64,000 nt of DNA from contig CASRZA010000001.1 in the NCBI GenBank assembly GCA_949439935.1, positions 1,391 through 65,390 of the forward strand. Reading direction: 5' to 3'. A program made the translations under genes and the position numbers. The notes beneath the pieces are model-generated. The model ran no database searches. It had not been told where the DNA came from and saw nothing but the letters and a program-made list of their open reading frames with translations. Positions 12,831 through 42,892 of the stretch are shown here, piece by piece. Every line of letters starts with the position of its first letter. The stretch's first letter is position 1. Source of the stretch: an uncultured Bacilli bacterium (GTDB taxonomy: Bacteria > Bacillota_I > Bacilli_A > RF39 > UBA660).

Positions 12831-13304
12831 ATGGCAATAGATAGGAAAAATTTTTCTTTAGCTAAACACGATCCAGAAATACAAGACTTAATATCAAAAA
12901 CAGAGCATAAATTATTGGCTCGATGGGCAATCGATTGTCTTAATAGAGTCTTTTTTGTTTTTGAAAAATACTACCCAAACGAAACTATACCTCAAACAGC
13001 TCTCAATATTTTAAATGACTGTATAGATGATAAAATTTCGATGTGGGAAGCGAGAAAATACTGTTGGACGGTTTTAGAGTTAGCACGTGAGATAGAAAAA
13101 AACAATAAGGCCTGTTGTCAAATAGTTAGAGCGACAAGTCATTGCTTAGCGACCTGCCATGTTCCCACTCATGCAGAAGGAACAGCGATGTATGTAATCT
13201 CTGCTAATAAATACATAGATGAAGATAAGGAAAACGTGATAGAAATTATGGAAGCCGAAAGAAAATGGCAAATTGACCACTTGAAAGAATTGCGCGCGCA
13301 ATAA
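12831..13304 (+). CDS. hypothetical protein (His/Cys-rich; CHVPTHAEG)
   Basis: 157-aa ORF starting 18 nt after the previous gene. I recognise no family. Confidence 0.4.
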   Translation: MAIDRKNFSLAKHDPEIQDLISKTEHKLLARWAIDCLNRVFFVFEKYYPNETIPQTALNILNDCIDDKISMWEARKYCWTVLELAREIEKNNKACCQIVRATSHCLATCHVPTHAEGTAMYVISANKYIDEDKENVIEIMEAERKWQIDHLKELRAQ

Positions 13305-14961: not shown

Positions 14962-15621
14962 ATGAAAAAATTTGTCTTTTTAATTATACTTGTTTTTATA
15001 ATGTTAATCTCTCTCGCAGCAAAATTTCAACCGTCGAATTCTTTCCCACTGTTTGGGAAATTCATAATATTGGACCCTGGTCATGGAGGATTAGACCCTG
15101 GCTCAATTTATAAGGAAGAATACGAAAAATATTACAATTTAGAATTCTCTCATACCTTAAAAAAAGAACTAGAGAATTTTGGGGCGACCGTCATAATGAC
15201 ACGCACTGGGGATTATGACTTGAGCAGTCCTTCCGCTTCACGACGTAAAAGAAGTGATTTTGAAAATAGGATCAAGCTCATCAATGAAAATAGACCTGAT
15301 TTATACATATCACTACATATGAATTCTCTAAGCAATTCTAAATACTACGGTAGTCAAGTTTTTTATAGTGAAATTAATAGCCAAAATAAACTAATCGCCG
15401 ATATACTTCAAAAAAAACTGAACTCGTATTTAAAATTAGATAGAGACTATAAAAAAATTTCCGACGATAAATATATGTTTAAAAGAATAGACCCTCCCGG
15501 CGTACTTATAGAATATGGATTTATATCTAGCAGTAGAGATAGAGCCAACCTCAAAACCAAAAAGTATAGGGAAGAATTGTCAAAGATAATATGCTATGCT
15601 TTGATAGAATATTTTTCATAA
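14962..15621 (+). CDS. cwlD: N-acetylmuramoyl-L-alanine amidase, CwlD-like (Amidase_3)
   Basis: N-terminal TM/signal, DPGHGGLDPG and SLHMNS motifs of the Amidase_3 zinc amidase. Size and layout match germination-specific CwlD. Confidence 0.65.
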   Translation: MKKFVFLIILVFIMLISLAAKFQPSNSFPLFGKFIILDPGHGGLDPGSIYKEEYEKYYNLEFSHTLKKELENFGATVIMTRTGDYDLSSPSASRRKRSDFENRIKLINENRPDLYISLHMNSLSNSKYYGSQVFYSEINSQNKLIADILQKKLNSYLKLDRDYKKISDDKYMFKRIDPPGVLIEYGFISSSRDRANLKTKKYREELSKIICYALIEYFS

Positions 15622-16007: not shown

Positions 16008-16934
16008 ATGCAAAAGACGTTCAAAACGATAGACGAGCAAATTCAAATTCTAAAAGATAAAGGTCTTGTCATCGAAGATGAAGATTCTGCTAGAGATACT
16101 CTTTTAAGAGAAAACTACTTTTTTATAAGTGGATACAGACATCTTTTCATGCAGGGAATAAGGTCTAAACAATTTAAGCCGAATACTAATTTTAGAGAAC
16201 TATATGCGATGTTCAACTTTGATAGACAACTGCGAAACATCATATTTAAAAATTTGTTGATTTTAGAAAACAATTTAAAAAGCATATTCTCATATCAGTT
16301 ATCTAAAAATTATGGTTTTAAAGAAAAAGATTATTTGAGGCCATCTAACTTTAATACTCATCCAGATAAGTCGAGACAAGTAAACGACCTTTTGAGAAAA
16401 ATCAAAAGACAGATTCGAGTAAACGGTGGACAACACTCGGCTACCACTCACTATATTTATAACTATGGTTATATTCCACTCTGGGTTGTTGTAAAAGTAT
16501 TGTCTTTTGGCATAGTTTGTGAATTATATTCCATAATGAAATCGAAAGATCAAGAAGAAATCGCCGACATCTATAATCTTAGAGTTACAGATCTTTTGAG
16601 TTTTTTGCCCATACTAGCGAACTATCGCAATCTATGTGCTCATGAGGACATACTTTATGACAATAGGACAGCAGTAGCCATAGAGACAAACAAGTACCAT
16701 ACGATGCTCGAACTTCCGATGTTGGATGACGAATATACGAGTGGAAAAAACGATCTTTTTGCACTTATTCTGATCATGAAATTTATGCTGACGGAGGAAG
16801 AATTCAGACTCGTAATTAAAGAGATAGACTATGAAAAGTCAGTTCTAGAAGGAAAGCTCAAAGTAATAGACATCGAAGACGTCATGAGCTTTATGGGATT
16901 TCCTAAAGATTATACTAAGTTAATTGAAATGTAA
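16008..16934 (+). CDS. Abi_2-family abortive infection protein (AbiD/AbiF-like)
   Basis: The N-terminus (TIDEQIQILKDKGLVIEDEDSARDTLLRENYFFISGYRHLF) matches the conserved start of AbiD/AbiF (Abi_2) proteins. Size is ~308 aa. Confidence 0.65.
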   Translation: MQKTFKTIDEQIQILKDKGLVIEDEDSARDTLLRENYFFISGYRHLFMQGIRSKQFKPNTNFRELYAMFNFDRQLRNIIFKNLLILENNLKSIFSYQLSKNYGFKEKDYLRPSNFNTHPDKSRQVNDLLRKIKRQIRVNGGQHSATTHYIYNYGYIPLWVVVKVLSFGIVCELYSIMKSKDQEEIADIYNLRVTDLLSFLPILANYRNLCAHEDILYDNRTAVAIETNKYHTMLELPMLDDEYTSGKNDLFALILIMKFMLTEEEFRLVIKEIDYEKSVLEGKLKVIDIEDVMSFMGFPKDYTKLIEM

Positions 16935-16955
16935 AATAGAAAGACGTGAAAACGA

Positions 16956-18146
16956 ATGGAAAATGAAATTGTAGAAACTCAAGAAAAAGAAACTGTCAAA
17001 AAAACAGTCAAACCAAAAAAAATAAAAGATGAAAAAAAGAATAAATCTCATTCTACGAACTGGCTCGCTTGTTTTATCGCAGGATTGATCGGAGCAGCGT
17101 CCATGTACTTATTTGTCTATTATGTCATGCCTATGGGTTCGACGAGTACAGTTATCAATAAGAGCGAAAAAGAAGTAACTGTCAACGAAAACGGCATCGC
17201 TGACGCCGTAGAAAAATTGTACGATGCAGTCGTCGTAGTTACAGTTTACAAAAATGAAACACTTTCGGCAAGCGGTACAGGATTCGTATATAAGGTAAAT
17301 GGCAAAAAAGCCTACATTCTCACGAACAATCACGTAGTAGATTTAAGTGGAAAATCGGCTGTTAAAGTAATATTTACGAACGGCGAAGAAGTCGAGGTTA
17401 AGATCGAAGGCACAGACGAATATTCCGATTTAGCAGTCTTAAGTGTAGATGCCGATAAAATTGTCGACGTCGCCGAAATAGGTAAAAGCGAAGACGTTCG
17501 CCTTGGAGATACTGTATTTACTCTAGGTGCACCACTTGATACAGAGTATTACTGGTCAGTCACGAGAGGAGTAGTAAGCGGAAAAGATAGAATGGTCGAA
17601 GTATCTCTTACAAGCTCAAATACTTCTGATTATGTCATGAAAGTTCTTCAGACAGACGCCGCTATAAACTCCGGAAACAGTGGAGGACCTATTGCCAATT
17701 CAAATGGACAAGTCATCGGTATAACGAACATGAAACTCGTCTCAAATGGAGTCGAAGGAATCGGCTTTGCAATACCAATCGAAGACGCAGTCACCTTTGC
17801 AGACGCTATAATCGAGGGAAAATCCATCAAAAAGCCTCTAATAGGTGTCAAAATGTTGAACTTATCCGACAGATGGAGTCTTTACAGCAATGGAATAACT
17901 TTAAACACAGAACTTACATCTGGAGTCGTCGTAGTCGAAGCACAAAAAGGTGCTCCTGCCGCACAAGCGGGACTGACGCGCGGAGACATCATCGTTGCAA
18001 TAGATGGCGAAGAAGTGAAGAATGTGGCTAGATTGAGGTACTATCTATACAGACATACGGTAGGAGACACAGTCACAGTTACAATTGAACGTAATGGAAA
18101 AAAACAAGATGTTAAACTTAAACTGACAGTTGCAAACGAAGAATAG
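16956..18146 (+). CDS. htrA: HtrA/DegP-family serine protease with PDZ domain
   Basis: N-terminal TM anchor, trypsin-like catalytic motifs (TNNHVV, GNSGGP), C-terminal PDZ. Confidence 0.85.
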   Translation: MENEIVETQEKETVKKTVKPKKIKDEKKNKSHSTNWLACFIAGLIGAASMYLFVYYVMPMGSTSTVINKSEKEVTVNENGIADAVEKLYDAVVVVTVYKNETLSASGTGFVYKVNGKKAYILTNNHVVDLSGKSAVKVIFTNGEEVEVKIEGTDEYSDLAVLSVDADKIVDVAEIGKSEDVRLGDTVFTLGAPLDTEYYWSVTRGVVSGKDRMVEVSLTSSNTSDYVMKVLQTDAAINSGNSGGPIANSNGQVIGITNMKLVSNGVEGIGFAIPIEDAVTFADAIIEGKSIKKPLIGVKMLNLSDRWSLYSNGITLNTELTSGVVVVEAQKGAPAAQAGLTRGDIIVAIDGEEVKNVARLRYYLYRHTVGDTVTVTIERNGKKQDVKLKLTVANEE

Positions 18147-18601
18147 GTTGCAACTTTTTCTTTTGCCAAAGAGAAAAACTAGGCACTCCAAGAAAACGGA
18201 TACATTGAGTTAGTATTTTTTACAACAAGGAGTTTGTAAAAAGTTTTTGGTAGTAAACAAGCCCATCTTTTAGTAAAGTTTTATAAAAAATTGAAATCAA
18301 TTGCAATTGTAATCTTTTGCCAAATTCGATAAAATATCACAAAATGAAGGGATAACTATGGCAAAAAATGAAATTGTAAACTATTCTTATAACCTAGAAT
18401 ATATGAGTCCAGTTTACCCGACTCAAAATGTAATCTACACAAGCAAAAAGAAAAACGAGGATTTTAATTTTTCGAGTCTTCGCAAAAATAAAAGCAAAGC
18501 AAAAGATTCTAAGAAAAGTACAATCTACACTTTATTTATAGGCGATTTTAGTCGTAACAAAAGAAGAAATTTACGTCTCTGAAAACGAAGAATCTTCTCT
18601 A

Positions 18602-19285
18602 ATGTCGGCGATTCATCCTAGCTTTTACTTACAAGATTTAGATGAAATTAGAAACAATATTCCTCAAAAAATAGAAAACTTTTTGGAACCAAAAGAAATA
18701 GAACGTATTGAAATCGACAAAGACATAGCAAACCTAAAAGGTATTTTAAGTCCAGAAGCTTTTCCTTTTGGGAAGTGGCCTAGTAAATACCACCCAGCCA
18801 TGATGCAGCAAGTCACTATCAACTTGACTACCATAGAGGCAACACCAGTATTCTCAGTCAATGGCCATCCTGTCTCTGGCAAGACGACCCTCGTGAAAGA
18901 GCTCGTCGCAGACAAAATAGTAAAACGTGCCATCAGGCTCGCCAATTTTAAAAATGCTGACGATGCCTTCGAAAAAGAAGAAATCGAAAACAACAATAAC
19001 AAGTATTTTAGAAAATACTACAAAATGCACGACGCCTTAAAAGGATTTAGTATGTTAGTGGCATCGAACAACAATGCTGCAGTAGAAAACATATCTCTCG
19101 ATTTGCCAAATGCTAAAGATGTCGTAAAGGAGAAGACTTTAAGTGGTTTGTTTGACAAGCGAGAAAACGAGGACATATATTTCACAGATACAGCAAATTC
19201 ACTATTTAATTTCGACGCATGGGGATTGATTTCAGTCCCTTTAGGTAAAAAAGAAAATAACGATGCATTTTTAAAGAGTATATAA
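18602..19285 (+). pseudogene. truncated SF1 (Upf1/Dna2-like, AAA_11) helicase N-terminal fragment
   Basis: Walker A GHPVSGKTT and motif Ia-like MLVASNNNAAVENIS are present. The ORF ends after 227 aa with no motif II or C-terminal RecA domain. A terminator follows. Confidence 0.45.
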
Positions 19286-19518: not shown

Positions 19519-20991
19519 ATGGAAATTACTGATAAATTAGTTAAAGAGATAACAGAAACCGCATATCTAAACCAAGAAAATACTTTTAGATATAGACCCA
19601 TTATGCGATTTTTCTATCAAAAGCATGAGCAAGCAGAGAATTGGCTTTATAAAGAAGATATTTATGCGGAGTTGTGTTCTAGCATACCCAATTATACGAT
19701 TGAGGACTGCCAAAGAGACTTGGACTTTTTGGTATCAAAAGGTTCATTGACCCCAGTTCAAGATACTGAAAATGCAACGACGCTGGATAAATTCAAATTC
19801 AATAACTTTCGATACCAAATGACAGACTATGCCGTCGAAATCGAGCGTCTTACCATACGTTTAGAGGAACTTGTTGTAAAAGTTGCCTCTCTCGAGCCGA
19901 GATTGTTTGAAAGAATTAAAAGTATGCTCAAAAAAGTTTTAAACATCACGACAATGACTGAAACAGATATATACGAAATGTGGAACGACCTCATCACAGA
20001 TTTTGAAAACCTTAACTTTAACTATCAAGATTTTATCAAAAAATTTCACGAAGTTAGAACCGAAGAATTACTCCAGAATGAAAGTTTTATTTCCAAAAAG
20101 AATGAACTCATTCATTATTTGGAAGATTTTATTAAAGAATACATTAAGCACAGTAAAGAAATTAAAAAAATACTTGAAGAGATAAAGGACGAAAATGTGA
20201 CATATCTTATGGATTGTTTAGTAAACTACCAAAGAAAAGCACCAAAGATTAGGCCGGACTTTGATTACGATTACTTAAGAGAAGTAAATTTTGGAAAGTG
20301 GTTAAGCATTCGTAAATGGTTTATAAGTTCCAAAGGTCCGAGCGAAGGAGAAAGACTTCTAAAAGCCACGAACAGCATAATATCGAAAATAACCAAATAC
20401 GCGTCAAGTCTCATCGAACTACATGGCAATATGTTAAATAGAAAAGAAGATTATAAATATCTTTGCCATCTTTTCGATAAACAAAGTACCATTGAAGAAG
20501 CACAGAAACTTGCAAGTGCCGTAATCGGGGTAGATATAGTGAGGCATTTTAAAGGGTCGAGTCAGCTTCAAAGCGATTCTATTATACCGAGTCTCGATGT
20601 CGATTCGATTATTATTAAAATAGACCCTGTAAAAAGAGGCGTTAAATGTAAAAGCGACAAAGAGCCAATCAAGGATAAAACTAGAGAAAAAGAGCTCCTC
20701 CTCGAGGCATTTCGACGCGAAGAAAAGCGAAATCGAGAAATATTGAGCAACTTTATTGCAACAGGGAAAAAAGAGTTAAAAGGAAAAGTGTCTATCCTTC
20801 CAGAAGAAAGAGACTACATTTTTAAACTTTTAGAAAAGTCGAAAAGAGAATTAAATAAAGAGGTCTCAGAAGGTGTAGACCCCGTATTCGGAAAAAAATA
20901 TACGATTAAGTACATAGAAGGCCGATGTAATTTAGAGGCGGAGGATGGTATATTCGAAATGGAAGCCATCGAAATCGTATTTGGAGGATAA
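19519..20991 (+). CDS. jetA: Wadjet/Mks-type system component A (JetA/MksF-like)
   Basis: First gene of a four-gene operon with overlapping gene boundaries, preceded by a GGGGGA RBS. Assignment is by operon context with the SMC-like and Toprim genes. Confidence 0.5.
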   Translation: MEITDKLVKEITETAYLNQENTFRYRPIMRFFYQKHEQAENWLYKEDIYAELCSSIPNYTIEDCQRDLDFLVSKGSLTPVQDTENATTLDKFKFNNFRYQMTDYAVEIERLTIRLEELVVKVASLEPRLFERIKSMLKKVLNITTMTETDIYEMWNDLITDFENLNFNYQDFIKKFHEVRTEELLQNESFISKKNELIHYLEDFIKEYIKHSKEIKKILEEIKDENVTYLMDCLVNYQRKAPKIRPDFDYDYLREVNFGKWLSIRKWFISSKGPSEGERLLKATNSIISKITKYASSLIELHGNMLNRKEDYKYLCHLFDKQSTIEEAQKLASAVIGVDIVRHFKGSSQLQSDSIIPSLDVDSIIIKIDPVKRGVKCKSDKEPIKDKTREKELLLEAFRREEKRNREILSNFIATGKKELKGKVSILPEERDYIFKLLEKSKRELNKEVSEGVDPVFGKKYTIKYIEGRCNLEAEDGIFEMEAIEIVFGG

Positions 20992-20992
20992 C

Positions 20993-22186
20993 ATGGAAGA
21001 AGTATCATTGGAAAAGGAAATGAATTTACTCTTAAATAATTTCTGGATTACAAAAGAAGAAAACAAAGAGGATTATTATCTTCTTAAAAAGAATCAAGAC
21101 AAGATAAGAGAATTTATGCATCGAACCGCAGGGAATAAACTGATAGTGCATGACCGTTTTATTAAACTCGAGAAAATCCCAGCCAATGCACGCAAAGAAT
21201 ACAGCATTAATGATTTTACAAAAGTTCTCGACTATGTCATCCTCTTCATTATGCTCATTTATCTCGAGGAAAAGACGAGAGGAGACAAATTTATTTTGTC
21301 TGAGCTAATCGAATATATAAAAAATACAGCTATTACACTGAAATTAGACCATATTCCAAACTGGGATAATGCCATAGACCGACGAAGCTTAATCCGAGTA
21401 CTCGATTACCTCATTGGAATAAACGTAATATTCCTACGAGACCAAGATAACAAAAGTTTTCAAGAACATATAGAAGCCGATGCATTGTATGAAGCTACGG
21501 GTCTTGCTAACTATGTCATACCATCATTCGATTTTGAAATTTACGACTGCAAAACACCAGAAGATTTCCTCGATTTAGAATGGAAAGACCAAGACTTTGA
21601 AAAAGGGGAAGTCCGCAAATATAAAGTTTATAGACATCTCTTGTATGCGCCCGCGACCACCAAAGACGAGTTAACTCGAGGAGAAGAGGATTATGTCAAA
21701 CATCTCCATAAAATGATTGAAAAAGAACTCCAAGAAAAAATCAATTTTGAAGTGGAGATTACTAAAAATATGTGTATGACTTTCACAGATGAATACGCTG
21801 TACAAAAAGAATACTTTCCTAATACAAAAAATATGAGTGATTTGATTTTACTCATTAATAAGACGCTTAAAGATTATAGGCAAAATAAAAATATCGAGAT
21901 AAGAGAGGATGAAACATTTACTCTTTCTCGAAGCGAATTTGATGAAATGATTCGCAGTGCTAGAGAAGAAAAAACAGAATACTTTAGCAAAAAATATACA
22001 GATATTCCCCTGAACAAATTATTGGAAGAAATCTATACAGCTATGGAAGCGTATCATTTTATAATGATAAAAGGGGAAACGGTGATAGTCTATCCATTAG
22101 TCGATAGATTTATCGCAAAGCTAACGCAACAAAAACAAGCTGAACATTTACAGCTAACGAATGAAGGTGAATTTGATGAATTATAA
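20993..22186 (+). CDS. jetB: Wadjet/Mks-type system component B (JetB/MksE-like)
   Basis: Second gene. The ORF opens at 20945, but the likely start is the ATG at 20993, which has a GGAGGA RBS. Its end overlaps the start of the SMC-like gene. Confidence 0.5.
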   Translation: MEEVSLEKEMNLLLNNFWITKEENKEDYYLLKKNQDKIREFMHRTAGNKLIVHDRFIKLEKIPANARKEYSINDFTKVLDYVILFIMLIYLEEKTRGDKFILSELIEYIKNTAITLKLDHIPNWDNAIDRRSLIRVLDYLIGINVIFLRDQDNKSFQEHIEADALYEATGLANYVIPSFDFEIYDCKTPEDFLDLEWKDQDFEKGEVRKYKVYRHLLYAPATTKDELTRGEEDYVKHLHKMIEKELQEKINFEVEITKNMCMTFTDEYAVQKEYFPNTKNMSDLILLINKTLKDYRQNKNIEIREDETFTLSRSEFDEMIRSAREEKTEYFSKKYTDIPLNKLLEEIYTAMEAYHFIMIKGETVIVYPLVDRFIAKLTQQKQAEHLQLTNEGEFDEL

Positions 22187-25100
22187 ACCTACAAGGATAG
22201 GATTATTAAACTTTTGGCTATATGATGACGAAGAATTTGATTTTGCAGATGGTAAACTTCTCTTGAGGGGAGAAAACGGTTCTGGAAAATCGGTCACGAT
22301 GCAATCATTTATCCCACTCATTTTAGATGGAAACAAATCTCCGAAGCGATTGGACCCTTTCGGTAGTACCGATAAACACATCGAAGCTTATTTACTTGGT
22401 GGCTACGACACAGAACAAAAAAACGAAGCGACGGGATACCTCTTTATGGAATTTTATGAAGAATCGACACTTAAATATATAACGATAGGTATGGGGCTTC
22501 ACGCACGAAAAGGTCGACCAGTCGATTTTTGGGGATTCGCTATCACGGATGGCAAACGAATAAACAGAGATTTCTTTCTTTACAAAAACCATGTGCAAAA
22601 AGTACCTTTAAGCAAAAACGAATTAAGAACAGCTTTAGGCCCTATGAATACACTTGTCGATACAACTAAAGAATATAAAAAAATGGTAAATAACATTCTA
22701 TTTGGATTTCAAAATCTCGAAGATTATGATGAATTCATAAATGTATTAATTCAACTACGTAGTCCTAAGCTTTCGAAAGATTATAAACCGACCGTGTTGA
22801 TGGACATTTTAAGTAAAGTATTACAACCTCTTACAGAAGATGATTTGCGGCCTCTTTCTGAAGCAGTGGAAGAGATGGATAACACCAAAGAAAAGATTGA
22901 GCAACTGAAAAAACACTTAAAGCAATTATCTTATCTCATGCAATCTTATAGAAACTATAATGAATCGATACTCTATAAAAAAGCGAGTAATTTTAAAGAG
23001 AGCAGAGTAGCAGAGGAAAAAGCAAAAGCTGAACTTGCTGAAATTGAAAACAAAATCGTCAATGCTGAAAAGAAAATTGTTGAACTCGACCAAAGTTTAA
23101 CGGAACTTGAAATCGAACTAGAAGCAGCCAAAAAGTCTCGTTCAGAAATTGATAGCAAAGATTTAGAAAGCAATATTCAAAAAGTAAAAGAGTTAGAAGA
23201 AGCCATTACCAAATTGAACGCAGAGCTTTCAGGCTATTCTGAAAGACAAGAAGCGCTGGAAAATAAAAGACTAGACGCGGAAAAGAAAAAAAAGCACTGC
23301 GAAGATGAGTTAGCATCTCTTGAAAGAAGAATTGCAAGAACTATTAATTCTATCGATGGATTATGCAGTGAAGTCATGTTTAATGACCCAGTTTTACTTT
23401 TAAAGGATTACCAAAAAGACAATAAAAATATAATTGATTTTGATTCCATATTACAAAGGACAAATGGTCATAACCAAAAGTTATACGAAGTGCTTTCAAA
23501 ATTAAAAGAAAAAACGATAAAAGAAATACACTTCGGTGAAATAGAAAGCGAACTGAACATTCTCAACAAAGAGCAGAGCGACCTAATTCACAAATTAGAG
23601 ATAGGACAAAGTTCTTTAGAAGAAATGCTTGCTACTATGCGCGATGAAATACTTTTTATAGAAAAATCTAATCAATTTGTTAAATTCGATGCAGACGATA
23701 AAAATCGTCTTCTAAAACCGACATACGATTTTTCAAAGAGCAATTATGATGAAGCAAAGACATTCTATCAAAATCTTGCCGATTCCTACTATAAAGAAGC
23801 GAACAAAGCATTTTATTTCATCGAGAATAAATTAAAAGCTACGAAAGAAAATCTTAGTACGCTACATTGTCAACTGGAAGAACTTAAAAATCAAAAAGAA
23901 GAAGAGATACCATTAGATATAGAGGAAGAAAGTACTTTTGCATTCTTAAAGAGCCAAAATGTCCCATTTATTCCATTCTATAAAGCAGTAGACTTCATCG
24001 AGAATCTTTCCGCAAAGACAAAAAATCATATTGAGGCGACAATGCTAAAAGCAGGACTTCTTAACGCACTTCTTATCGATACGAAGGACTTAGAGAAAGT
24101 CGTCAACCATAAAGGTGTTTTCTTGACACCGGGTCCAAAAAAAAGAAACAATCTAACGAAGTACTTTAGTTGTGCAAAAAATATAGATTTCGAAAGTAAA
24201 ATTGTCATCAACGTTTTGGAGTCTTTAAGTATTGATAGCGATGAACTCATTTCTTTCAGTGAAAATTCATTTAAAATAGAGACGATTCATGGGTACGGTG
24301 CGCAAAATGAAAATCAAAAATATATCGGTATTCTTGCCAGAATTGAAGCTCATCAAAAAACTATCGATGCAAAAATGTCTGCTATCAAGGAAGTGGAAGA
24401 GACAAAGGCACAATTAGAGAAAGCTTTAGAAGAAAAGGGACTGGAAGTTCAAACAATAGAACACGAAAAAACCTTGTACCCAAATGACACGAAAGTGGAA
24501 GAAATTATCATAGGAATAAACGAGTTAGAACTTCGGCTAGATATCAAAAAAAAAGAAATTCTACAAACGGAGGAAAAAGCAACTTCATTGAAAGACTCAT
24601 TGAATATATTGTATAAAGAAATAAACGAACACAAAGATACGATTGCTCTACCATTAACTGAAGAATCAATCAGTGATGCTTTAAGTTCGTTGACAATCTT
24701 GATAAATGAAATAAATGATTTAAAAAGTGATTACCAACAATTAATACAAAATCGAGAGAATCTTTCCTTAATAGACGAAAGAATAGAAGAAATCACTGCA
24801 TCGCTCGGCGAAATATACCTCAAAATAGAAGAAAATAAAAAAACAGCTCAAAAATACATGTCTACAAAAAACAATATTGAGGAAATCCTAAACTCAGAAG
24901 AAACTAAAAAATTGAGCGAATTGCTTAGAACACTGGACGAAAAAATCGATTCGATTCCTAAGAAACAAGGTAACCTTAGAGAAGAAAAAGGGACATTGGT
25001 TGCAGATTTGACAAACTACAAAAACGCTTTAGAAAATAATCGAATTAGCTATAATACAAAAAAAGACATGACAGAGATATATAGAAATATATTTATGAAT

Positions 25101-26231
25101 GAATATAATCTAAACTATGTCATGAAATGCGAAGGAAACGATACAGAATTAGCGAATAGGGTCTTCGACCAACTATCTGCCAAGAAAAATGCAGATGAAA
25201 AAACACTTTTCGAAAACTTTGTCGACAATTACAATAAATACAAAAATGAGTTAGCGGAATACAAACTGTCATATAAAACTCTCTTTGAGACGGTGGAAGA
25301 GGGGGAATTCAAGGCTGTTTATGAAACAGCTACGAGAAGAGACTATACTGTCATTTACCAAGGCCGCACAATGAACTTATTCGCTCTTGAGAATGAACTA
25401 AACGCCTCGATAATAGAAAATGAACAAATCATAAGTGACCAAGATAGAAATCTTTTCGAAGAAATACTTTTAAAAACGGTAGGTAACAAAATTCGGGAAC
25501 ACATCGATGATGCCAAAAAGTGGATTAAGACGATAAACCAAATTATGAGAAATATGCAAACATCAAGCGCGCTATCATTCCAATTAGAATGGCATCCTAA
25601 AGATAAAGACTCGATTGACGAAATAGACACCCGCGAATTGATAAGCTTATTCAACATAAATCCAGACATGATAAAACCGTCTGACAGTGACAAACTGATA
25701 AAACACTTCCGTTCTAAATTAAAAAGTAGGATTGAAGAGGAAACCCACGAGAGCTACGCTGATATTATTTTTGACATCCTCGATTATCGCAACTGGTTCC
25801 AATTCAAAATGTATTACACGAGAGCAGGCGAAAATAGACATGAACTCACAGACAAAGTTTTCTCTGTCTTCAGTGGTGGAGAAAAAGCAAAAACGATGTA
25901 TCTACCACTTTTCACCGCGGTCTGTGCTAAACTACAAAGTGCTCGAAAGAATGCACCTCATATAGTCGCTCTCGATGAAGCTTTTGCGGGTGTCGATGAT
26001 GCAAACATTCGAGAAATGTTTGGAATCATGGGTTCACTAAATCTCGATTATATTCTCACATCACAAGCACTATGGGGAGACTTTGATACGATTAAAGAAT
26101 TAGGAATATCGGAATTGTTAAGACCGAATAATTCTTCGGTTGTAGGAATAAGACGATATCATTGGAACGGATTTGTAAAAGAAGTAGTACAAAAAAGGAA
26201 AGTGGAAGATGAACCTATGGACATATTTTAA
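22176..26231 (+). CDS. jetC: SMC-like ABC ATPase with long coiled coil (JetC/MksB-like)
   Basis: N-terminal Walker A GENGSGKS, very long heptad-rich coiled-coil middle, C-terminal ABC signature SGGEK and Walker B HIVALDEAF. ~1350 aa, matching the SMC-like component of the conserved four-gene (TIGR02677-80 type) operon. Confidence 0.7.
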   Translation: MNYKPTRIGLLNFWLYDDEEFDFADGKLLLRGENGSGKSVTMQSFIPLILDGNKSPKRLDPFGSTDKHIEAYLLGGYDTEQKNEATGYLFMEFYEESTLKYITIGMGLHARKGRPVDFWGFAITDGKRINRDFFLYKNHVQKVPLSKNELRTALGPMNTLVDTTKEYKKMVNNILFGFQNLEDYDEFINVLIQLRSPKLSKDYKPTVLMDILSKVLQPLTEDDLRPLSEAVEEMDNTKEKIEQLKKHLKQLSYLMQSYRNYNESILYKKASNFKESRVAEEKAKAELAEIENKIVNAEKKIVELDQSLTELEIELEAAKKSRSEIDSKDLESNIQKVKELEEAITKLNAELSGYSERQEALENKRLDAEKKKKHCEDELASLERRIARTINSIDGLCSEVMFNDPVLLLKDYQKDNKNIIDFDSILQRTNGHNQKLYEVLSKLKEKTIKEIHFGEIESELNILNKEQSDLIHKLEIGQSSLEEMLATMRDEILFIEKSNQFVKFDADDKNRLLKPTYDFSKSNYDEAKTFYQNLADSYYKEANKAFYFIENKLKATKENLSTLHCQLEELKNQKEEEIPLDIEEESTFAFLKSQNVPFIPFYKAVDFIENLSAKTKNHIEATMLKAGLLNALLIDTKDLEKVVNHKGVFLTPGPKKRNNLTKYFSCAKNIDFESKIVINVLESLSIDSDELISFSENSFKIETIHGYGAQNENQKYIGILARIEAHQKTIDAKMSAIKEVEETKAQLEKALEEKGLEVQTIEHEKTLYPNDTKVEEIIIGINELELRLDIKKKEILQTEEKATSLKDSLNILYKEINEHKDTIALPLTEESISDALSSLTILINEINDLKSDYQQLIQNRENLSLIDERIEEITASLGEIYLKIEENKKTAQKYMSTKNNIEEILNSEETKKLSELLRTLDEKIDSIPKKQGNLREEKGTLVADLTNYKNALENNRISYNTKKDMTEIYRNIFMNEYNLNYVMKCEGNDTELANRVFDQLSAKKNADEKTLFENFVDNYNKYKNELAEYKLSYKTLFETVEEGEFKAVYETATRRDYTVIYQGRTMNLFALENELNASIIENEQIISDQDRNLFEEILLKTVGNKIREHIDDAKKWIKTINQIMRNMQTSSALSFQLEWHPKDKDSIDEIDTRELISLFNINPDMIKPSDSDKLIKHFRSKLKSRIEEETHESYADIIFDILDYRNWFQFKMYYTRAGENRHELTDKVFSVFSGGEKAKTMYLPLFTAVCAKLQSARKNAPHIVALDEAFAGVDDANIREMFGIMGSLNLDYILTSQALWGDFDTIKELGISELLRPNNSSVVGIRRYHWNGFVKEVVQKRKVEDEPMDIF

Positions 26232-27459
26232 AGAAAGAAGAGGTTTTGACAGGTTACTCATTGCTCTTAAGGAAAAATACATTTCTTTAGGACGATACAG
26301 TGGAACTGTCGCATTAGACAATTTGACCGAGCTGGAAGCAGAAGAACTGTCAAAATTTTTTGGACAGAAACTTTATCCAGGCGAATCCTTCAAAACCTCT
26401 TTTTCAAAAATAGAAAAAAAGCTAAAAAACACGATTTATGAAAATTTCTCCTGGGAGACAGTGTTTATCAACTACTTCGGAAAACAACCTATCCCAAAAG
26501 CTACCATCCGAAACCAAAAGAGAGAAACTGAGCAACAATTTTTCAGAAATATTGCAAATAATCTTTCACCAACATTAAGACAAGAATTTGGCAGAATCGT
26601 GCAAGAAAAGAGTTCGATACATTCTTTATTAGTGAAAAGGTATCGCAAGGAAAAGAACTTTGAGAAAGAACTGTCCAACTTATTAGAAATTATCGAAAAT
26701 TTGAAAGAACTCACACCAAGCACTCTTTCTTTGATTGCATCTCATACGGGAAATCCACACTTTTTGGATATGGGTACACAAAACAATAGTTTGTTCATAA
26801 AAATTTTGGCTCTGTATAAAGGACTAGAAGAACCATTGACAAATCAAGAAAAAATTGATTTCCTTTCTGAATTGGGAATTGCAGTGGATGATTTATCAAA
26901 CTATGCGATTACCTATATGCTCGACAGCAATACGACTTTTATTAAAAGCTTTAAAGAAGCAGAAGAACCATTAAACATTAACCTTCATAATATCGAAAAA
27001 ATAGATAACTTATTTACTAAAATTGGTCATGTGTTCCTCTTTGAAAATCCGTCTATTCTATCTAAATTGTCTTATTTAAATGTCCCTATTATTATCACTT
27101 CGGGTAATCCAAACTATGTAGTTTATAAGCTTTTAGACAAGCTTGTACAGAATAAGATTTGTATCCATTACAACGGTGATTTTGATCCAGAAGGTCTTAT
27201 AATTGCTAACAATCTTAAAAATCGATACCCTACTATGCAATTGTTTTGCTATGAGGGGCGAGATTTTTACAATACAATATCGGATAATATATTAAATGAG
27301 CCTCGCTTGAAAAAACTACGTCTTGTAGAATGTTCAGATTTGCAAAACATAAAAAGATTGCTCTTAAAAGAAAAACGATGTGGTTATCAAGAGAATAATT
27401 TAGAAAGAATAAAGGAGTATATCGAAAAAATAACAGTTAAGCAATCGGTAGAAGTCTAA
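26209..27459 (+). CDS. jetD: Toprim-domain protein (JetD/MksG-like)
   Basis: Fourth gene, overlapping the jetC stop. The C-terminal region has a Toprim-like layout: VPIIITSGNP, then CIHYNGDFDPEG (DxD). Confidence 0.6.
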   Translation: MNLWTYFKERRGFDRLLIALKEKYISLGRYSGTVALDNLTELEAEELSKFFGQKLYPGESFKTSFSKIEKKLKNTIYENFSWETVFINYFGKQPIPKATIRNQKRETEQQFFRNIANNLSPTLRQEFGRIVQEKSSIHSLLVKRYRKEKNFEKELSNLLEIIENLKELTPSTLSLIASHTGNPHFLDMGTQNNSLFIKILALYKGLEEPLTNQEKIDFLSELGIAVDDLSNYAITYMLDSNTTFIKSFKEAEEPLNINLHNIEKIDNLFTKIGHVFLFENPSILSKLSYLNVPIIITSGNPNYVVYKLLDKLVQNKICIHYNGDFDPEGLIIANNLKNRYPTMQLFCYEGRDFYNTISDNILNEPRLKKLRLVECSDLQNIKRLLLKEKRCGYQENNLERIKEYIEKITVKQSVEV

Positions 27460-27564: not shown

Positions 27565-27869
27565 GTGTTTTATATGAAAAATACTTACGGTAACTTAGAC
27601 AGAGTTTTAACAGGCATTGTAATTGACCCTGGGCACGGAGGCGCGGATGGAGGGGCTTCTGGAAACGGAATTGTGGAAAAAAATATGACTTTGGATATAA
27701 GCAATTACATGTTTAACAGATTTAAAGAGTTGGGTGTTCCCGTAGCAATGACGCGAACTGGAGATGTAGAGTTGACTTCGTCGACAAGGCCTAGAAAGGT
27801 TCTAGATGCATTTGGAAGTGGAAAAGATGTGATTGTCTTATCTAATCACATAAATGCAGGAGGTGCGGA
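27565..27869 (+). pseudogene. N-acetylmuramoyl-L-alanine amidase (Amidase_3 + LysM), 5' segment
   Basis: IDPGHGGADGGA...LSNHINAGGAE, then the frame runs into inserted DNA (FSYHC*). Read across the junction, the frame continues exactly at 41320 (NAGGAEGAEVIY). Confidence 0.75.
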
Positions 27870-28226
27870 GTTCAGTTACCATTGTTAGATTAGTTGGGTA
27901 TAAGGACAAATAATTGAAATAAAATATATAAAAAGTAGAATTTTAGAAATTGTAATAACCCTAAAATTTAAATTTCGTTGAATCAATCTAAAGTGCACAA
28001 TTAAGTGCATTTTAATAAAAAAAACGAATTTCCAAAAGAAAGTGCACAATAATAAAGAAAAAAACATCTAATTTTTATGAAAAAATGATTGAATAATAAA
28101 CAAAAAGCGATAATTGTTTCACGACAAAAAGATTACAGTGAAATCAAATTATAAAAGTAAGCGCACAATAATTTAACTACTGTAAGTGAGATATATTATA
28201 CAAAAATAAAATAAATAGTCAATAAT

Positions 28227-28252
28227 GAATTTGACAGCATGAATCCAATGTT
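28227..28252. repeat. 26-bp direct repeat flanking the IS (GAATTTGACAGCATGAATCCAATGTT), copy 1
   Basis: Perfect 26/26 match to 29497-29522. Confidence 0.8.
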
Positions 28253-29496
28253 TGTTGAGTTACAATAGATGTGAGACCTGAGTATGTACAAAAAAAGATT
28301 TAAGTCGTAAAATATCGTTTAAGAAAAAACACGAAAGGACTTAAATCTATGAACAGTATAACACAAAAAGCAAATAATTCAAGATATTTACCACACGAGG
28401 TAGAAACACGTATATACGCAGTCAAATTATATAGAGGAGGTAATTCAGTTAAATATGTGTGTAGAAAATACCATATTTCTAAGGCTTCTCTTATGAGATG
28501 GAATAAAAAATATGATGGAACAAATGAATCTTTAATTGATAAATCTCATAGACCACTTACTCCTCATCCTAATGCTCATACTGATGAAGAACTAAAGTGG
28601 ATTTGGAATTATGTTAGAAGAACACCCAATATTACTCTAGGTGAATTATGGGTTAAACTTAAAAGTAATAAAGGTTACTCTAGACATCCCGGCAGCCTTT
28701 ATAGAGTTTTGAGAAGAAATGGATTTAAATATAAGATTAATATCAATCATACTTCTAAATATGTTCCTAAACCATATGATACTCCTAAGTCTTTAGGAGT
28801 AAAATGGCAGATTGATGTTAAATATGTTCCAAGAGAATGTCTAACTAATTCTATACCAAGTGATTTAAAGTTTTATCAATATACTTGCATTGATGAGGCA
28901 TCAAGAGAAAGATTTCTCTATTGGTATGACGAACAATCACCTGCCTCTACAGTAAATTTTATAAATAGATCTATCGAATACTTTGGATATAAACCTAAAA
29001 CTATTCAGACAGACAATGGACAGGAATTCACTTGGAATAGAGAAAAGATGAAAAAGATACATCCAGTCGATGAACTGTGCATTTCTCTTAATATAGAACA
29101 TTACAAAATTAAACCTAGAACGCCTAGACATAATGGCAAGGTAGAAAGAAGTCATCGAAGTGATAATGAGAGATTTTACAACAATCATTCTTTCTACTCT
29201 TTAGAAGACTTACAAAAACAAGGTGAGGTCTACCTCAAAAGATCTAATAATATCCCTATGCAAGTTTTAAAATATAAAACACCTTTAGAACAAAGAATGC
29301 TTTTATCTTTTGAAAGTTAATAATTATAATCCAAAATAAAAAGTTAGATCAAGGTAAGATAAACTTGGCTTCGCCAAACCTTGACTAACTTTCCATTTTG
29401 AATTCTCCTATGTCTAACTTCAAAAGAAAAAAAACGATATTTTGACCTACATCATTTTCTTGTAAAAGTTGGTCTCACATCATTTACATTTCTACA
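28253..29496 (+). mobile_element. insertion sequence (~1.24 kb), IS481/IS1202-like DDE (rve) transposase
   Basis: Imperfect terminal inverted repeats begin TGT and include GATGTGAGACC ... AAAATATCGTTT blocks at both ends. It holds a single transposase ORF and is flanked by perfect 26-bp direct repeats. Confidence 0.6.
28349..29320 (+). CDS. DDE (rve) transposase with N-terminal HTH
   Basis: HTH-like N-terminus. Integrase-core motifs WQIDVKYV, TDNGQEF and PRTPRHNGKVERSHR (D-D-E with the GK-ER signature). Confidence 0.7.
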   Translation: MNSITQKANNSRYLPHEVETRIYAVKLYRGGNSVKYVCRKYHISKASLMRWNKKYDGTNESLIDKSHRPLTPHPNAHTDEELKWIWNYVRRTPNITLGELWVKLKSNKGYSRHPGSLYRVLRRNGFKYKININHTSKYVPKPYDTPKSLGVKWQIDVKYVPRECLTNSIPSDLKFYQYTCIDEASRERFLYWYDEQSPASTVNFINRSIEYFGYKPKTIQTDNGQEFTWNREKMKKIHPVDELCISLNIEHYKIKPRTPRHNGKVERSHRSDNERFYNNHSFYSLEDLQKQGEVYLKRSNNIPMQVLKYKTPLEQRMLLSFES

Positions 29497-29522
29497 GAAT
29501 TTGACAGCATGAATCCAATGTT
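29497..29522. repeat. 26-bp direct repeat flanking the IS, copy 2
   Basis: Identical to 28227-28252. Confidence 0.8.
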
Positions 29523-29756: not shown

Positions 29757-30584
29757 ATGGATTCTGCTTATTTTTTGAAGTATGGAGTTGACAATATGAA
29801 GTACAAATTATTAGATCTAGAATTTGGGGTTGAAGCTTGTTTAGTATATATAGATGAATATACAGATGAACTGAAAAAATTAATTGATGATAATTTTTTA
29901 GAGATTATTAAAGGTAAAATGATAGCCGAAAGGACTTCTGATAATTGTGTAACTGATACTTTAAAAGATGCAGCAAAATATATTCTTAAGAAAAATAGAA
30001 CTTCATCTGCTAAGGTTGGAATTATTGGAGAATTTTTGTTTCACTGCTTTATGCGATTAAGTGAAATTTCTTCTAGATTTTTATCTTGTTGTCCAACAAT
30101 AGGTTATAGTGATACATATCAGGGATTTTTTAAAGGATTTGATGGTTGTTATTATTATCAAGATGAAATTTGGATAACTGAAATAAAATCAAAAGAAAGA
30201 AGTATAGATTTAGATAAAGATAATAAAGAAAAATTAACTTTCGCAGCAAATCAGATAGAACAGGAAGTTAACGATGAAGATATAAATAGATGGGAAAAAA
30301 CAAAAGGATATGTATTTAGTCAATTGACAAATGAAGAGGTGGATGAAAAAAATATATATAAGTTACTAACTAAAAATAGTAAGAATAATTATAATAAAAT
30401 TTTAGGTACAATGTTAATATACGATAGTAAAGAATTTGACGTTAATTATATAAAAGGGTATTTAGATAAATTGAAAGATAAAAATGTTGTTAATCAAAAG
30501 TTATTTATTATGTGTATAAGGAATTATGATTATGACACTTTATATAATTATATTTTAATGAAGTATGGTGATTCTTACGAATGA
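29757..30584 (+). CDS. HamA-like putative PD-(D/E)xK nuclease (Hachiman-like effector)
   Basis: 275-aa protein overlapping the start of the SF2 helicase gene. Candidate D...ExK motif (YYYQDEIWITEIKSK). Assignment is by architecture, not by an alignment I could run. Confidence 0.4.
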   Translation: MDSAYFLKYGVDNMKYKLLDLEFGVEACLVYIDEYTDELKKLIDDNFLEIIKGKMIAERTSDNCVTDTLKDAAKYILKKNRTSSAKVGIIGEFLFHCFMRLSEISSRFLSCCPTIGYSDTYQGFFKGFDGCYYYQDEIWITEIKSKERSIDLDKDNKEKLTFAANQIEQEVNDEDINRWEKTKGYVFSQLTNEEVDEKNIYKLLTKNSKNNYNKILGTMLIYDSKEFDVNYIKGYLDKLKDKNVVNQKLFIMCIRNYDYDTLYNYILMKYGDSYE

Positions 30585-33015
30585 TAATATGTCTTTAAAT
30601 ATACAATTTGTAAAAGATTATATTGAGTTCTTAAAAGGTAATATTTTTAAAATTAATGGTTTATTAAATTATTCATTTTATTTATTGATAAAGAAAAAAG
30701 ATGAGTTGAGTTTAAACTTTGCCTATAGCATCATAATAAATTATACATTAAAATTTAAAGATTACAAACCTTTAATAGAATTTTCAATTATATTCGGATA
30801 TTCTCCAATATTAAATATAATATATAATAGAATTGGGATTGTAACTTCTAAAGAAATAGAAAATTTTATTGCAAATTATTATATAGAAGACAATAAATAT
30901 AACGATAAGATACTTACTTCAGGTCAAAAAGTAATGTATAAAATGATTGAATCCAAAACGGATTATTCTATTATTGCACCAACATCATTTGGGAAGACAG
31001 ATTTAATGTTAGAAAGTGCTCTTAAATCAATTGGTGACTGTATAATAATAGTTCCACTCATTGCTTTGTTGGGCCAAATTAAATTAGATTTATATCTTTT
31101 AGCTAAAAAAGAAAATTGCAAAATAAAATTAATAACGCATCATGAAATAAAAAGAAGTAATAATTATAAAAATATTTATATATTAACGCAGGAACGATGC
31201 TTTGAATTAATTAAAAGAAATAAGTTAGAAAATATTACAGATCTTTTTATAGATGAATCTCATAAATTATTGAATAGTAATGAACGCAGTTATAAATTAT
31301 CTCAAATAATTCTTCTTTTAAAAAAGAGATTTAATTGTTGTATCAAATATTATTCACCTGTCTTATATGAACCTAAATCAATTAGAATTAAAGGAGTTCA
31401 TAATAAATCATTAGAAATGGTGAATGGAATAAGAGATATGAAATGTTATCATTATTATTTTTATCATAATAACCATAAAGAAATATATATTCCTAATACA
31501 CTTAGAATGACAGAAGCATATATTTTAGATGATAAGTATTCAAGTTTTGACGAATACATATTAAAAAATTGTAAAAATAAAAATATAGTTTTTCTAAATT
31601 CTCCTAAGGATGTAGAAAAAACAGCTATTAATTTTGCAAGAAATATAAAAAATGATTTAGATATTGAATGCGATGATTTAATAGAATTTATTGGTGAAGA
31701 ATATTATATAATAGATATTATAAAAAAAGGAGTTATTTATATTCATGGGGAAATGCAAGATATAATCAAGTCATATCTATTGGATATTTATAGAAAAAAC
31801 AGAAATATAAAATACTTATTTACGAATTCAAGTATATTAGAAGGAGTAAATACTCCAAGCGACGCATTATTCATATATGACTACAGTATTGGTAGAGAAA
31901 TAATGAGGCCACAGGATTTTATTAATATACGTGGAAGAATAAATAGAATAAATGAAATAGTAAAATCCGGAGATTTAAGTAGGCTTATATGTGAAACGCA
32001 TTTTAATTGTCAGAGTGATTATAAGAAACAAAAAATAAGAAAAGAAATTATTGACCCGTGTTATGGAATTTATCATAAAGATGAAATAGATAATGAATAT
32101 TTGATCGATTATTCAAAAGAAAATAAAAGCTCAGAATTTATTTCTAGTTTAGAACAAATTAAATTGATTGATGATGAAATTGATATTAAATCTATTTTTA
32201 ATGAAGATATTAAAAATAATAAAAGTAGTATAATAAATAAATGTTTATTAAATAATATTAAATTAAATGATAATCAAGAAAAATTGTTGGAAGAAAGGAT
32301 ATCAAATTATTATGGCAAAAAGATTAATAATATAAATGAATTGTTATCTGCAATTAATACTATTTTTAAATTAAATGAATCAGATGAAATAGCAATCTCC
32401 CGTTTATCAAATGATTCTGCAAGAAATTTTTACTCTCTGTTAATACAATGGATTATTGAAGGGAAAACAATAAAAGAAAAAGCTTTAAGATTAACAAATT
32501 ATTATAGAAAAAAACCTTTTGGAGAATTAATATATGTTGGAAAAAGAGGAGATATATGTGCTGAGTTAATTAATAATAAACTGATTATCTCTCACTCGGG
32601 ATTTAGTTATTTGAAAGTTGATAAAAAAGGAAATCCAATTAAACTAAAAAAATTATGGACAATTAATAATGCAGATTTAAAGAAATTATATAATATATGC
32701 GTTATTAAATTAAAGGTAGAAGAAGATTTCATTTCGTTCAAATTAATACCATATATAGAATCTTTAGAAGATATTAATGATACAATTATTGATAAAAATC
32801 TGTATAATTTAATAAAATATAGATCTAATGATTTATTTGAAATTGAATTGATTAAGGAGGGCTTTTCTATTTATCTTGCCAGAATATTAAATAATGAAAT
32901 TTATAAAAAATATATTCATTTTTCTGATTTAGGGGTAATTATAGATTCAAAAATTCTTAATTTTTTCACTGGTAATAAAATAGTATATGAAGAATTAATA
33001 AGATATATATCATAA
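30565..33015 (+). CDS. SF2 DExH-box helicase (HamB-like)
   Basis: Motif I PTSFGKT, motif II FIDESHKLL (DESH), motif VI-like QDFINIRGRINR. ~816 aa with N- and C-terminal extensions. Confidence 0.55.
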   Translation: MVILTNDNMSLNIQFVKDYIEFLKGNIFKINGLLNYSFYLLIKKKDELSLNFAYSIIINYTLKFKDYKPLIEFSIIFGYSPILNIIYNRIGIVTSKEIENFIANYYIEDNKYNDKILTSGQKVMYKMIESKTDYSIIAPTSFGKTDLMLESALKSIGDCIIIVPLIALLGQIKLDLYLLAKKENCKIKLITHHEIKRSNNYKNIYILTQERCFELIKRNKLENITDLFIDESHKLLNSNERSYKLSQIILLLKKRFNCCIKYYSPVLYEPKSIRIKGVHNKSLEMVNGIRDMKCYHYYFYHNNHKEIYIPNTLRMTEAYILDDKYSSFDEYILKNCKNKNIVFLNSPKDVEKTAINFARNIKNDLDIECDDLIEFIGEEYYIIDIIKKGVIYIHGEMQDIIKSYLLDIYRKNRNIKYLFTNSSILEGVNTPSDALFIYDYSIGREIMRPQDFINIRGRINRINEIVKSGDLSRLICETHFNCQSDYKKQKIRKEIIDPCYGIYHKDEIDNEYLIDYSKENKSSEFISSLEQIKLIDDEIDIKSIFNEDIKNNKSSIINKCLLNNIKLNDNQEKLLEERISNYYGKKINNINELLSAINTIFKLNESDEIAISRLSNDSARNFYSLLIQWIIEGKTIKEKALRLTNYYRKKPFGELIYVGKRGDICAELINNKLIISHSGFSYLKVDKKGNPIKLKKLWTINNADLKKLYNICVIKLKVEEDFISFKLIPYIESLEDINDTIIDKNLYNLIKYRSNDLFEIELIKEGFSIYLARILNNEIYKKYIHFSDLGVIIDSKILNFFTGNKIVYEELIRYIS

Positions 33016-33065: not shown

Positions 33066-33905
33066 ATGAGTGAAAAAGAATTGGATTCAAGTGTAAAGGA
33101 ATATACAGAATACAACAAATCAAACACATATATAAAACAATTACAATGGGATATGGCCATTGGCCTTCAAGAAGTTGATAATTTACATCCTTCTAAATAT
33201 TTTGAAAAACTTATAAATGATAATGTAGAAGGTAACTTAAGCATTGAAGAAGTAAAAAAAGAATTGAGAAAATACTACATTGAAAGAGAGAATAAAAATG
33301 AATTAAATCACAATGAAAAAGAATGCGACTTTGTTTCTACAAGAATAGTTGAATTATTACAGCAAGATAATTTTGAATTATCGGTCGATTACTTAAAGTA
33401 TATTCATAAATTTCTATTTCAAGACGTATACGAATTTGCTGGTGAATTTAGAAAAATAGATTTCTCTAAACACGAGAAGATATTAAATAATGATTCAGTA
33501 GCATATGGAAATTGTAGAACTTTAAAAGAATCTTTAGAATATGATTTATCTTTAGAAATTAGTAAAGACTATAATAAGATGAATCCAATCGAAGTTATTA
33601 ACAATATAACAAAGTTTTCATCTAGCATATGGCAAGTTCATCCATTCAGAGAAGGCAATACTAGAACTACTGCACTGTTTATAGAAAAATATCTAACTAG
33701 CCTCGGATATAGTGTAGATAATACCTTATTTAAAGATAAATCCGTGTATTTTAGAAATGCGTCAGTAAGAAGTAATTATTTTAATAATTATATGAATGTA
33801 AAGGAAGACTGTAGTTATTTAATTAAATTTTATGAAAATCTATTATTGGGTAAAAATAATAATTTACACTTAGAAGATTTAATTGTTAAAGAATTGTTTA
33901 ATTAA
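33066..33905 (+). CDS. Fic/DOC-family protein
   Basis: Fic core motif HPFREGNTRTTALF, a variant of HxFx(D/E)GNGRxxR. Confidence 0.65.
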   Translation: MSEKELDSSVKEYTEYNKSNTYIKQLQWDMAIGLQEVDNLHPSKYFEKLINDNVEGNLSIEEVKKELRKYYIERENKNELNHNEKECDFVSTRIVELLQQDNFELSVDYLKYIHKFLFQDVYEFAGEFRKIDFSKHEKILNNDSVAYGNCRTLKESLEYDLSLEISKDYNKMNPIEVINNITKFSSSIWQVHPFREGNTRTTALFIEKYLTSLGYSVDNTLFKDKSVYFRNASVRSNYFNNYMNVKEDCSYLIKFYENLLLGKNNNLHLEDLIVKELFN

Positions 33906-34019
33906 TTATCTCTGAAAAACTAAGTACAATTCTACAATATTTTATAAAAATAAAATATTTTCGTTACACCCCTGGACTTATCACAAATTATTTGTTATTA
34001 TATATATAGGTGATGACTT

Positions 34020-35324: not shown

Positions 35325-35346
35325 AAAAGGGCAATGCCCCTTTTTT
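35322..35346. terminator. bidirectional Rho-independent terminator (AAAAAAGGGCAATGCCCCTTTTTT)
   Basis: GC stem flanked by an A-run and a T-run, sitting between convergent genes. Confidence 0.65.
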
Positions 35347-39678: not shown

Positions 39679-39770
39679 AAAAGCAAAGTTCAAAAACTTC
39701 GATTTTCCAATTAGGTTTTATGGATTTTAAGCGATAGCAATGATATAATATATTTATCGGAAGTGATAGT

Positions 39771-40744: not shown

Positions 40745-40754
40745 GAGGTATTTA

Positions 40755-41303: not shown

Positions 41304-41315
41304 TGGTAACTAAAC

Positions 41316-41705: not shown

Positions 41706-41774
41706 ATAGCTATATTTGGGTTAGTCTAAAATATTGCATGAAAACTAGATTTAGTATATAATAATTATCTAGAA

Positions 41775-42766: not shown

Positions 42767-42892
42767 CATGCATCATGCAAAGGAGATGATGCGTATGAGA
42801 AGATTTAATTTATATTTAACAGAGGAGTTATTTGAACGGATTAAATTACTTGCAAAATTTTATAATATTTCCATAACTAAATTAATGGTATA
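42767..42892 (+). CDS. small RHH-like putative DNA-binding protein (41 aa)
   Basis: Strong RBS GGAGG 5 nt upstream of the ATG. Sequence RRFNLYLTEELFERIKLLAKFYNISITKLM is consistent with a ribbon-helix-helix fold. Too short for the supplied ORF track. Confidence 0.35.

Follow-up and report, generated by a model that had tools for sequence, protein, structure and literature searches.

What is the operon of four adjacent, tightly packed genes at positions 19519-27459 of this DNA, and is it still a working defence system? The stretch analysed (the window) is 64,000 nucleotides from an uncultured Bacilli bacterium, positions 1,391 to 65,390 of contig CASRZA010000001.1, and its open reading frame (ORF) listing places the four genes, jetA-jetB-jetC-jetD, all on the + strand. 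The locus is very probably an intact chromosomal type II Wadjet (JetABCD-II, or JetA2B2C2D2) anti-plasmid system, and it is an ordinary example of a system already described: one more intact type II Wadjet. The type II subtype was reportedly defined by Doron et al. (Science, 2018). The analysis given here establishes which genes are present, in what order and that they are intact, to which families they belong, that their catalytic motifs are conserved and what fold JetD is predicted to have.

Three independent libraries of hidden Markov models were used, Pfam, PADLOC and NCBIfam, and they agree on type II families. The Pfam set is DUF2397, DUF2398, SbcC_Walker_B (with AAA_23) and DUF3323 plus DUF2399, all above gathering cut-offs and with full profiles covered, and the PADLOC type II models match all four proteins end to end (E 6e-99 to 0). 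The gene jetA (19519..20991, +), for a type II kleisin of 490 amino acids, matches DUF2397 at 1e-98 (331.8 bits over a cut-off of 28.5; profile positions 1-482 of 483), JetA2 at 2e-131 and TIGR02677 at 218 bits (cut-off 165.85). For jetB (20993..22186, +), the type II tandem-KITE subunit gene, the matches are to DUF2398 at 2e-72 (244.8 bits), JetB2 at 3e-97 and TIGR02678 at 136.6 bits (cut-off 124.65). The product of jetC (22176..26231, +), a structural maintenance of chromosomes (SMC)-like ABC ATPase, matches JetC2 at E = 0 (1210 bits; profile positions 6-1362 of 1365) and TIGR02680 at 691.7 bits (cut-off 462.85). Finally jetD (26209..27459, +), encoding 416 amino acids with a CAP-like N-terminal domain and a C-terminal Toprim nuclease domain, matches JetD2 at 6e-99, with DUF3323 and DUF2399 both above their Pfam cut-offs. 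With profile E-values between 1e-40 and 0, chance is excluded. The features characteristic of type II are all present: the gene order, the JetA family, a large JetB, a JetC of about 1350 amino acids, and the JetD domains with their E...DxD residues.

Comparison with solved structures leads to the same family. A sequence search of the PDB returned exactly one relative each for JetA, JetB and JetC, in every case the corresponding chain of entries 9QE0/9QE1, which show, by electron cryomicroscopy, the type II Wadjet of Neobacillus vireti in reconstituted form (bioRxiv 10.1101/2025.03.10.642339). JetA aligns to 9QE0_E (4e-47) over residues 5-481, and JetC to 9QE0_A (9e-171) over residues 6-1338. 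The JetB alignment to 9QE0_D (9e-37) sets residues 9-366 on 16-365 of 389 and spans both lobes of that protein. In type II systems one JetB chain, a tandem KITE of four winged-helix domains, takes the place of the KITE dimer of other SMC complexes (bioRxiv 10.1101/2025.03.10.642339); by this homology the large JetB of the present operon is taken to be the same tandem KITE.

The JetC sequence has the parts expected of an SMC-like motor. Counted on the 1356-amino-acid reading of the gene, Walker A (GENGSGKS) begins at residue 37 (22269..22292, +), the ABC signature SGGEK at residue 1238 (25872..25886, +), and Walker B (HIVALDEAF, followed by AGVD at the start of the D-loop) at residue 1267 (25959..25985, +). 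Across eight aligned relatives, which are 30-73% identical, NGSGKS, SGGEK and LDEAFAGVD are invariant. Between these motifs the central ~950 residues hold 0-3 proline plus glycine per 50 amino acids and the end regions of ~250 and ~150 residues 4-7, a depletion to be expected if a long helical coiled coil joins two ABC half-heads.

Several observations weigh against the identification as a functional type II Wadjet. A scan for promoters and terminators gave counts near the shuffled expectation, with no convincing signal or transcription unit. JetD reaches 114 bits with TIGR02679, under the curated NCBIfam cut-off of 196. An internal duplication was tried as independent proof of the tandem KITE and was not found: the N-terminal and C-terminal halves of JetB have no similarity detectable by BLASTP. 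It is thus homology to the N. vireti protein, nvJetB, and not an internal repeat, that supports the tandem-KITE reading. This outcome fits the strong divergence of the nvJetB lobes from each other (bioRxiv 10.1101/2025.03.10.642339). The PDB, lastly, returned nothing meaningful for JetD, either from the single sequence or from a nine-sequence profile, so that JetD is assigned by the PADLOC and Pfam models and by its predicted fold.

Structure prediction and a fold search were accordingly used to test that fold. The predicted structure has a mean pLDDT (predicted local distance difference test score) of 92.9, and Foldseek related it to PDB entries 8B7F (MksG), 1D3Y and 7TIL (JetD) at E 1e-7 to 1e-5. 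The result is a high-confidence model of a CAP plus Toprim fold like that of topoisomerase VI-A, MksG and JetD, in which the C-terminal domain has the beta-alpha-beta-alpha-beta pattern of Toprim. Glutamate E279 (27043..27045, +) comes at the end of the first Toprim strand, directly after modelled strand 274-278, and the DxD region HYNGDFDPEG (27166..27195, +; from residue 320, with D324 and D326) is placed after modelled strand 318-322. At E <= 1e-5 there are 438 JetD homologues; those listed all carry PF09664 and PF11796. In the 57 that were aligned, E279, N280, Y321, N322, G323, D324, D326, E328 and G329 are invariant, and E279, N280, D324, D326, E328 and G329 are also invariant in nine JetD sequences derived from the related loci, down to 25% identity. 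In MksG the Toprim metal ligands are E236 and D279, and substitutions E236A and D279A abolish nuclease activity (PMC10123090); these are the equivalents of the JetD Toprim metal ligands. The kinship to topoisomerase VI-A and Spo11 has its limits. Nucleases of the JetD type form no covalent tyrosine adduct when they cut, the 5Y-CAP tyrosine is absent from MksG and JetD (PMC10123090), and the products of type II cleavage are accessible to RecBCD (bioRxiv 10.1101/2025.03.10.642339). No topoisomerase VI-B partner is found here, and the ATPase partner is instead the SMC complex.

A first-pass annotation, made by reading the raw sequence with no search tools, had recognised a Wadjet (JetABCD) operon here and had rightly suspected, from the size of JetB, a less-studied subtype distinct from type I. 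PADLOC, Pfam and NCBIfam now sharpen that identity to type II, and the enlarged JetB is accounted for as the fused tandem KITE of a subtype that has since been reconstituted and solved, which makes the operon less novel than it seemed. The HMM searches that the annotation proposed do give strong matches to Jet families; among the sets it had named, type II (TIGR02677, TIGR02678, TIGR02680) is the one that fits, and not the type I DUFs. The motifs it quoted (GENGSGKS, SGGEK, HIVALDEAF and HYNGDFDPEG) are all in the translations, its very long coiled coil agrees with the composition of the third protein, and both the SMC nature of that protein and the Toprim fold of the fourth, for which it had looked to further work, are borne out by the alignment to solved JetC and by the JetD model.

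The layout of the genes depends on which start codons are used. The ORFs as listed are 19519-20991, 20945-22186, 22161-26231 and 26209-27459, and from the first ATG the second would encode 413 amino acids (start at 20945) and the third 1356 (start at 22161). For jetB the ATG at 20993 is the more likely start, to judge from the sequence around it: GGAGG stands 7 nucleotides upstream, a single base separates the codon from the jetA stop, and 397 amino acids are encoded. For jetC the more likely start is similarly the ATG at 22176, with AAGGTG upstream and a product of 1351 amino acids. Alignments of homologues begin exactly at 20993 and 22176, and the gene calls of the source contig, a JGI metagenome contig from sample 3300006151, agree. 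With these starts the four co-oriented genes have the sizes given in the first-pass annotation (490, ~397, ~1350 and 416 amino acids). Its claim of overlapping boundaries holds for two of the three junctions, jetB/jetC (11 nucleotides) and jetC/jetD (23 nucleotides); jetA and jetB are separated by a gap of 1 nucleotide and would overlap only if jetB began at 20945. The short gap and the two overlaps suggest translational coupling across the operon.

Might the operon nonetheless be a decaying or silent relic, no longer functional? Gene debris and insertion sequence (IS) elements lie nearby, with a fragment resembling a superfamily 1 (SF1) helicase upstream and a truncated amidase and an IS downstream, and IS content varies from strain to strain. 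Within the operon, none of the four reading frames is broken and each spans its PADLOC profile from end to end, the catalytic motifs are all intact, with no departure from the form conserved in relatives, and a contig from a second sample (L015) carries the operon at 99.9% identity, diverging only downstream, from window position 28047. With every frame and catalytic residue preserved, and the operon conserved from one sample to the other, a dead relic is very unlikely.

That the four genes encode a housekeeping condensin of the MksBEF/MukBEF type, serving chromosome organisation and not defence, is highly improbable. JetC is indeed an SMC/MukB-like ATPase, and type II complexes are like MukBEF in hinge and in resting-state geometry (bioRxiv 10.1101/2025.03.10.642339). 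Long chromosomal residence is also suggested, both by the guanine-plus-cytosine (GC) content of the operon, 0.339 beside 0.335 for flanking core genes such as addAB, prfB and htrA, and by synteny with htrA in a related metagenome-assembled genome (MAG). It is the intact nuclease gene coupled to jetC that makes the condensin role unlikely: MukBEF and MksBEF operons consist of three genes, for SMC, kleisin and KITE, and have no nuclease gene, whereas here a full-length jetD with intact Toprim residues overlaps the end of jetC. The type II Wadjet models, moreover, match best, with SMC_prok_B at just 20 bits against a cut-off of 567, and the operon stands among other defence genes. As for a type I or III Wadjet, or another SMC-like defence system (Lamassu, or a Rad50/SbcCD-like complex), this has a negligible chance of being correct: the Pfam matches to SbcC_Walker_B and JetD_C and weak or partial secondary matches to type I and III PADLOC models (JetB1 7.5e-4, JetC1 1e-33 and partial, JetD1 3e-4, JetD3 1.6e-5) speak for it, but the type II models score 60-1100 bits higher over whole proteins, the Pfam families are the type II set, the type I families DUF3375, DUF4194, DUF3584 and DUF2220 give no match at E <= 0.01, the sole type I Pfam trace (JetD_C) is weak at 18.3 bits under a cut-off of 22, and no SbcD/Mre11 or Lamassu effector gene is in the operon.

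How would such a type II Wadjet act? By homology with characterised systems we infer, as most likely, loop extrusion, circle-size sensing, a metal requirement and plasmid restriction at this locus. JetC would dimerise as an SMC-like ABC ATPase with long coiled coils, its heads bridged by the kleisin JetA, and JetA1B1C2 motor units would pair through the N-terminal winged helix of JetA, each kleisin seating one JetB tandem-KITE protein. Powered by ATP, JetABC would extrude loops of DNA. A small circle would be extruded to completion, and the stalled JetABC would then recruit or activate a JetD dimer. The Toprim site of JetD (E279, D324 and D326) would bind a divalent metal and make a sequence-independent double-strand cut, at random positions and with short 5' overhangs left behind, so that the plasmid would be linearised and the large chromosome and linear DNA spared. 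For the N. vireti system (nvJET-II), cleavage needs ATP, all four subunits and Mn2+, is sequence-nonspecific, and occurs on circular and not on linear DNA; nvJET-II restricts plasmids in B. subtilis, its restriction wanes above about 50 kb, and the JetD proteins of types I and II cannot stand in for each other (bioRxiv 10.1101/2025.03.10.642339). A native clostridial Wadjet, that of C. cellulovorans, blocks conjugative plasmid uptake (PMC12287153).

Among known systems, nvJET-II of N. vireti LMG 21834 is the one to which the operon is best compared. The gene order and subunit families are common to both, the lengths are close (JetA 490 against 500 amino acids, JetB 397 against 389, JetC 1351 against 1371), and both have a large single-chain JetB and a long JetC. 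The likeness is drawn from JetA, JetB and JetC, as the nvJET-II structures do not include nvJetD; the bit scores show that the sequences have diverged, and the host here is an uncultured, low-GC, gut-type bacterium. Type I Wadjet and MksBEFG, represented by JetABCD of E. coli GF4-3 and P. aeruginosa, C. glutamicum MksBEFG, MksG (PDB 8B7F) and JetD (PDB 7TIL), stand further away. Their Pfam families are others than the DUF2397, DUF2398 and DUF3323 plus DUF2399 of this operon. Type I JetB is a dimer of ~240-amino-acid subunits, whereas JetB here, at ~400 amino acids, would be a monomeric tandem protein; JetC is ~250 amino acids longer than type I JetC, and the N-terminal domain of JetD has no detectable sequence similarity to type I JetD. 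EptABCD of Mycobacterium smegmatis, which we take to be a type II (TIGR02677-80) member, belongs to a high-GC actinobacterium, unlike the low-GC host here. It is cited as a JetABCD homologue, the loss of which raises the efficiency of plasmid electroporation and plasmid maintenance (PMC12287153).

A scan for relatives, limited to one genome per species, yielded 13 related loci, with JetC 30-73% identical and the A-B-C-D order kept in 13 of 13 as far as each contig reaches. The closest are in MAGs labelled as uncultured Bacilli or, doubtfully, as Muribaculaceae, and the labels are inconsistent. When the 7.9-kb operon was compared by megablast with plasmid and phage collections, nothing matched, and there is accordingly no evidence from these collections that the operon is borne on a plasmid or phage. 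The Wadjet sits at the edge of an island of defence genes and mobile elements, the neighbouring defence genes being AbiD, HamB, a Fic protein matching PDC-S72, and a Dcm methylase; across 29.7-47.7 kb of the window GC content is lower, at 0.22-0.28.

Upstream of the operon, an abortive-infection gene of the AbiD/Abi_2 family (PADLOC AbiD, 2e-59) stands directly before a housekeeping-type htrA (16008-18146, +), and a related MAG locus (L002) keeps the arrangement amidase-abiD-htrA-jetABCD. Between htrA and jetA (18358-19285, +) the window has ORFs of 74 and 227 amino acids. The 227-amino-acid product contains the Walker A motif GHPVSGKTT and the motif 'VASNNNAAVENI'. Its match to PADLOC MkoC (Mokosh), at E 1e-11, covers a short internal stretch of the model (positions 241-327 of 1136), and it appears to be what is left of the N-terminal end of an SF1 helicase gene. 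As a fifth component of the operon it was rejected, having no homologue in the 13 related loci. In L002 htrA is followed directly by jetA, and the htrA-jetA interval is therefore a variable insertion spot. Further upstream, among small unassigned ORFs, is a gene for a 157-amino-acid Imm5-like immunity protein (Pfam PF21805, 8e-29; 12831-13304, +), which may be an orphan immunity gene of a polymorphic toxin system.

Just downstream of jetD is an N-terminal Amidase_3 fragment (27565-27888, +; profile positions 1-78 of 174). The idea that the island is bounded by duplicated amidases, this fragment and the complete gene at 14962-15621, was dropped; the two are only 39% identical over 61 residues, and the fragment is for this reason regarded as a truncated paralogue and not a duplication. 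An IS follows at 28227-29522, with a single HTH plus rve transposase of 323 amino acids (28349-29320), flanked by perfect 26-nucleotide direct repeats, GAATTTGACAGCATGAATCCAATGTT, at 28227-28252 and 29497-29522, which may be an unusually long target-site duplication. On the second-sample contig a different transposase (HTH_38) replaces this IS.

Beyond the IS, at 29757-33015 (+) and with a GC content of 0.22, an 816-amino-acid DEAD helicase matches PADLOC HamB1 (3e-46), and a 275-amino-acid ORF with no family match precedes and overlaps its gene, at the expected place of HamA; the pair is likely a Hachiman system. The interval 33066-36223 includes a Fic-domain protein that matches the PADLOC candidate system PDC-S72 (3e-76), followed by a C-5 cytosine methyltransferase (Dcm) gene (34020-35324, +) and, next to the latter, a convergent ORF of 292 amino acids (35345-36223, -) with no family match. 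Two large serine recombinases (38023-39678 and 43290-44855) are encoded in a low-GC stretch (0.27), succeeded by a degenerate tandem repeat at 44907-45481 (period ~160-174 nucleotides) and a tRNA-Pro(TGG) gene at 47794-47870. Together, the recombinases, the tandem repeat and the tRNA gene (38023-47870) suggest one or two integrated mobile elements beside the tRNA gene.

Type II Wadjet was characterised structurally and biochemically in 2025 and is hence known; the present operon is a routine intact member, of little importance beyond annotation. The gut-Bacilli clade of the operon is only distantly related to nvJET-II, the one characterised type II system: JetD lacks a sequence relative in the PDB, and JetA, JetB and JetC match 9QE0 at moderate scores. 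It is conceivable, if quite unlikely, that this clade differs in the docking of JetD to JetABC or in metal or size specificity, and that the conserved abiD-htrA-jetABCD linkage, with its variable htrA-jetA spot, marks a lineage-specific defence hotspot on a housekeeping gene. No experimental structure of a type II JetD was found in the copy of the PDB searched, and the locus is a possible diverged comparison sequence for structure-function work on that nuclease. Should the host be cultured and engineered, the operon would be an expected barrier to plasmid transformation, as are the native systems of C. cellulovorans and M. smegmatis.

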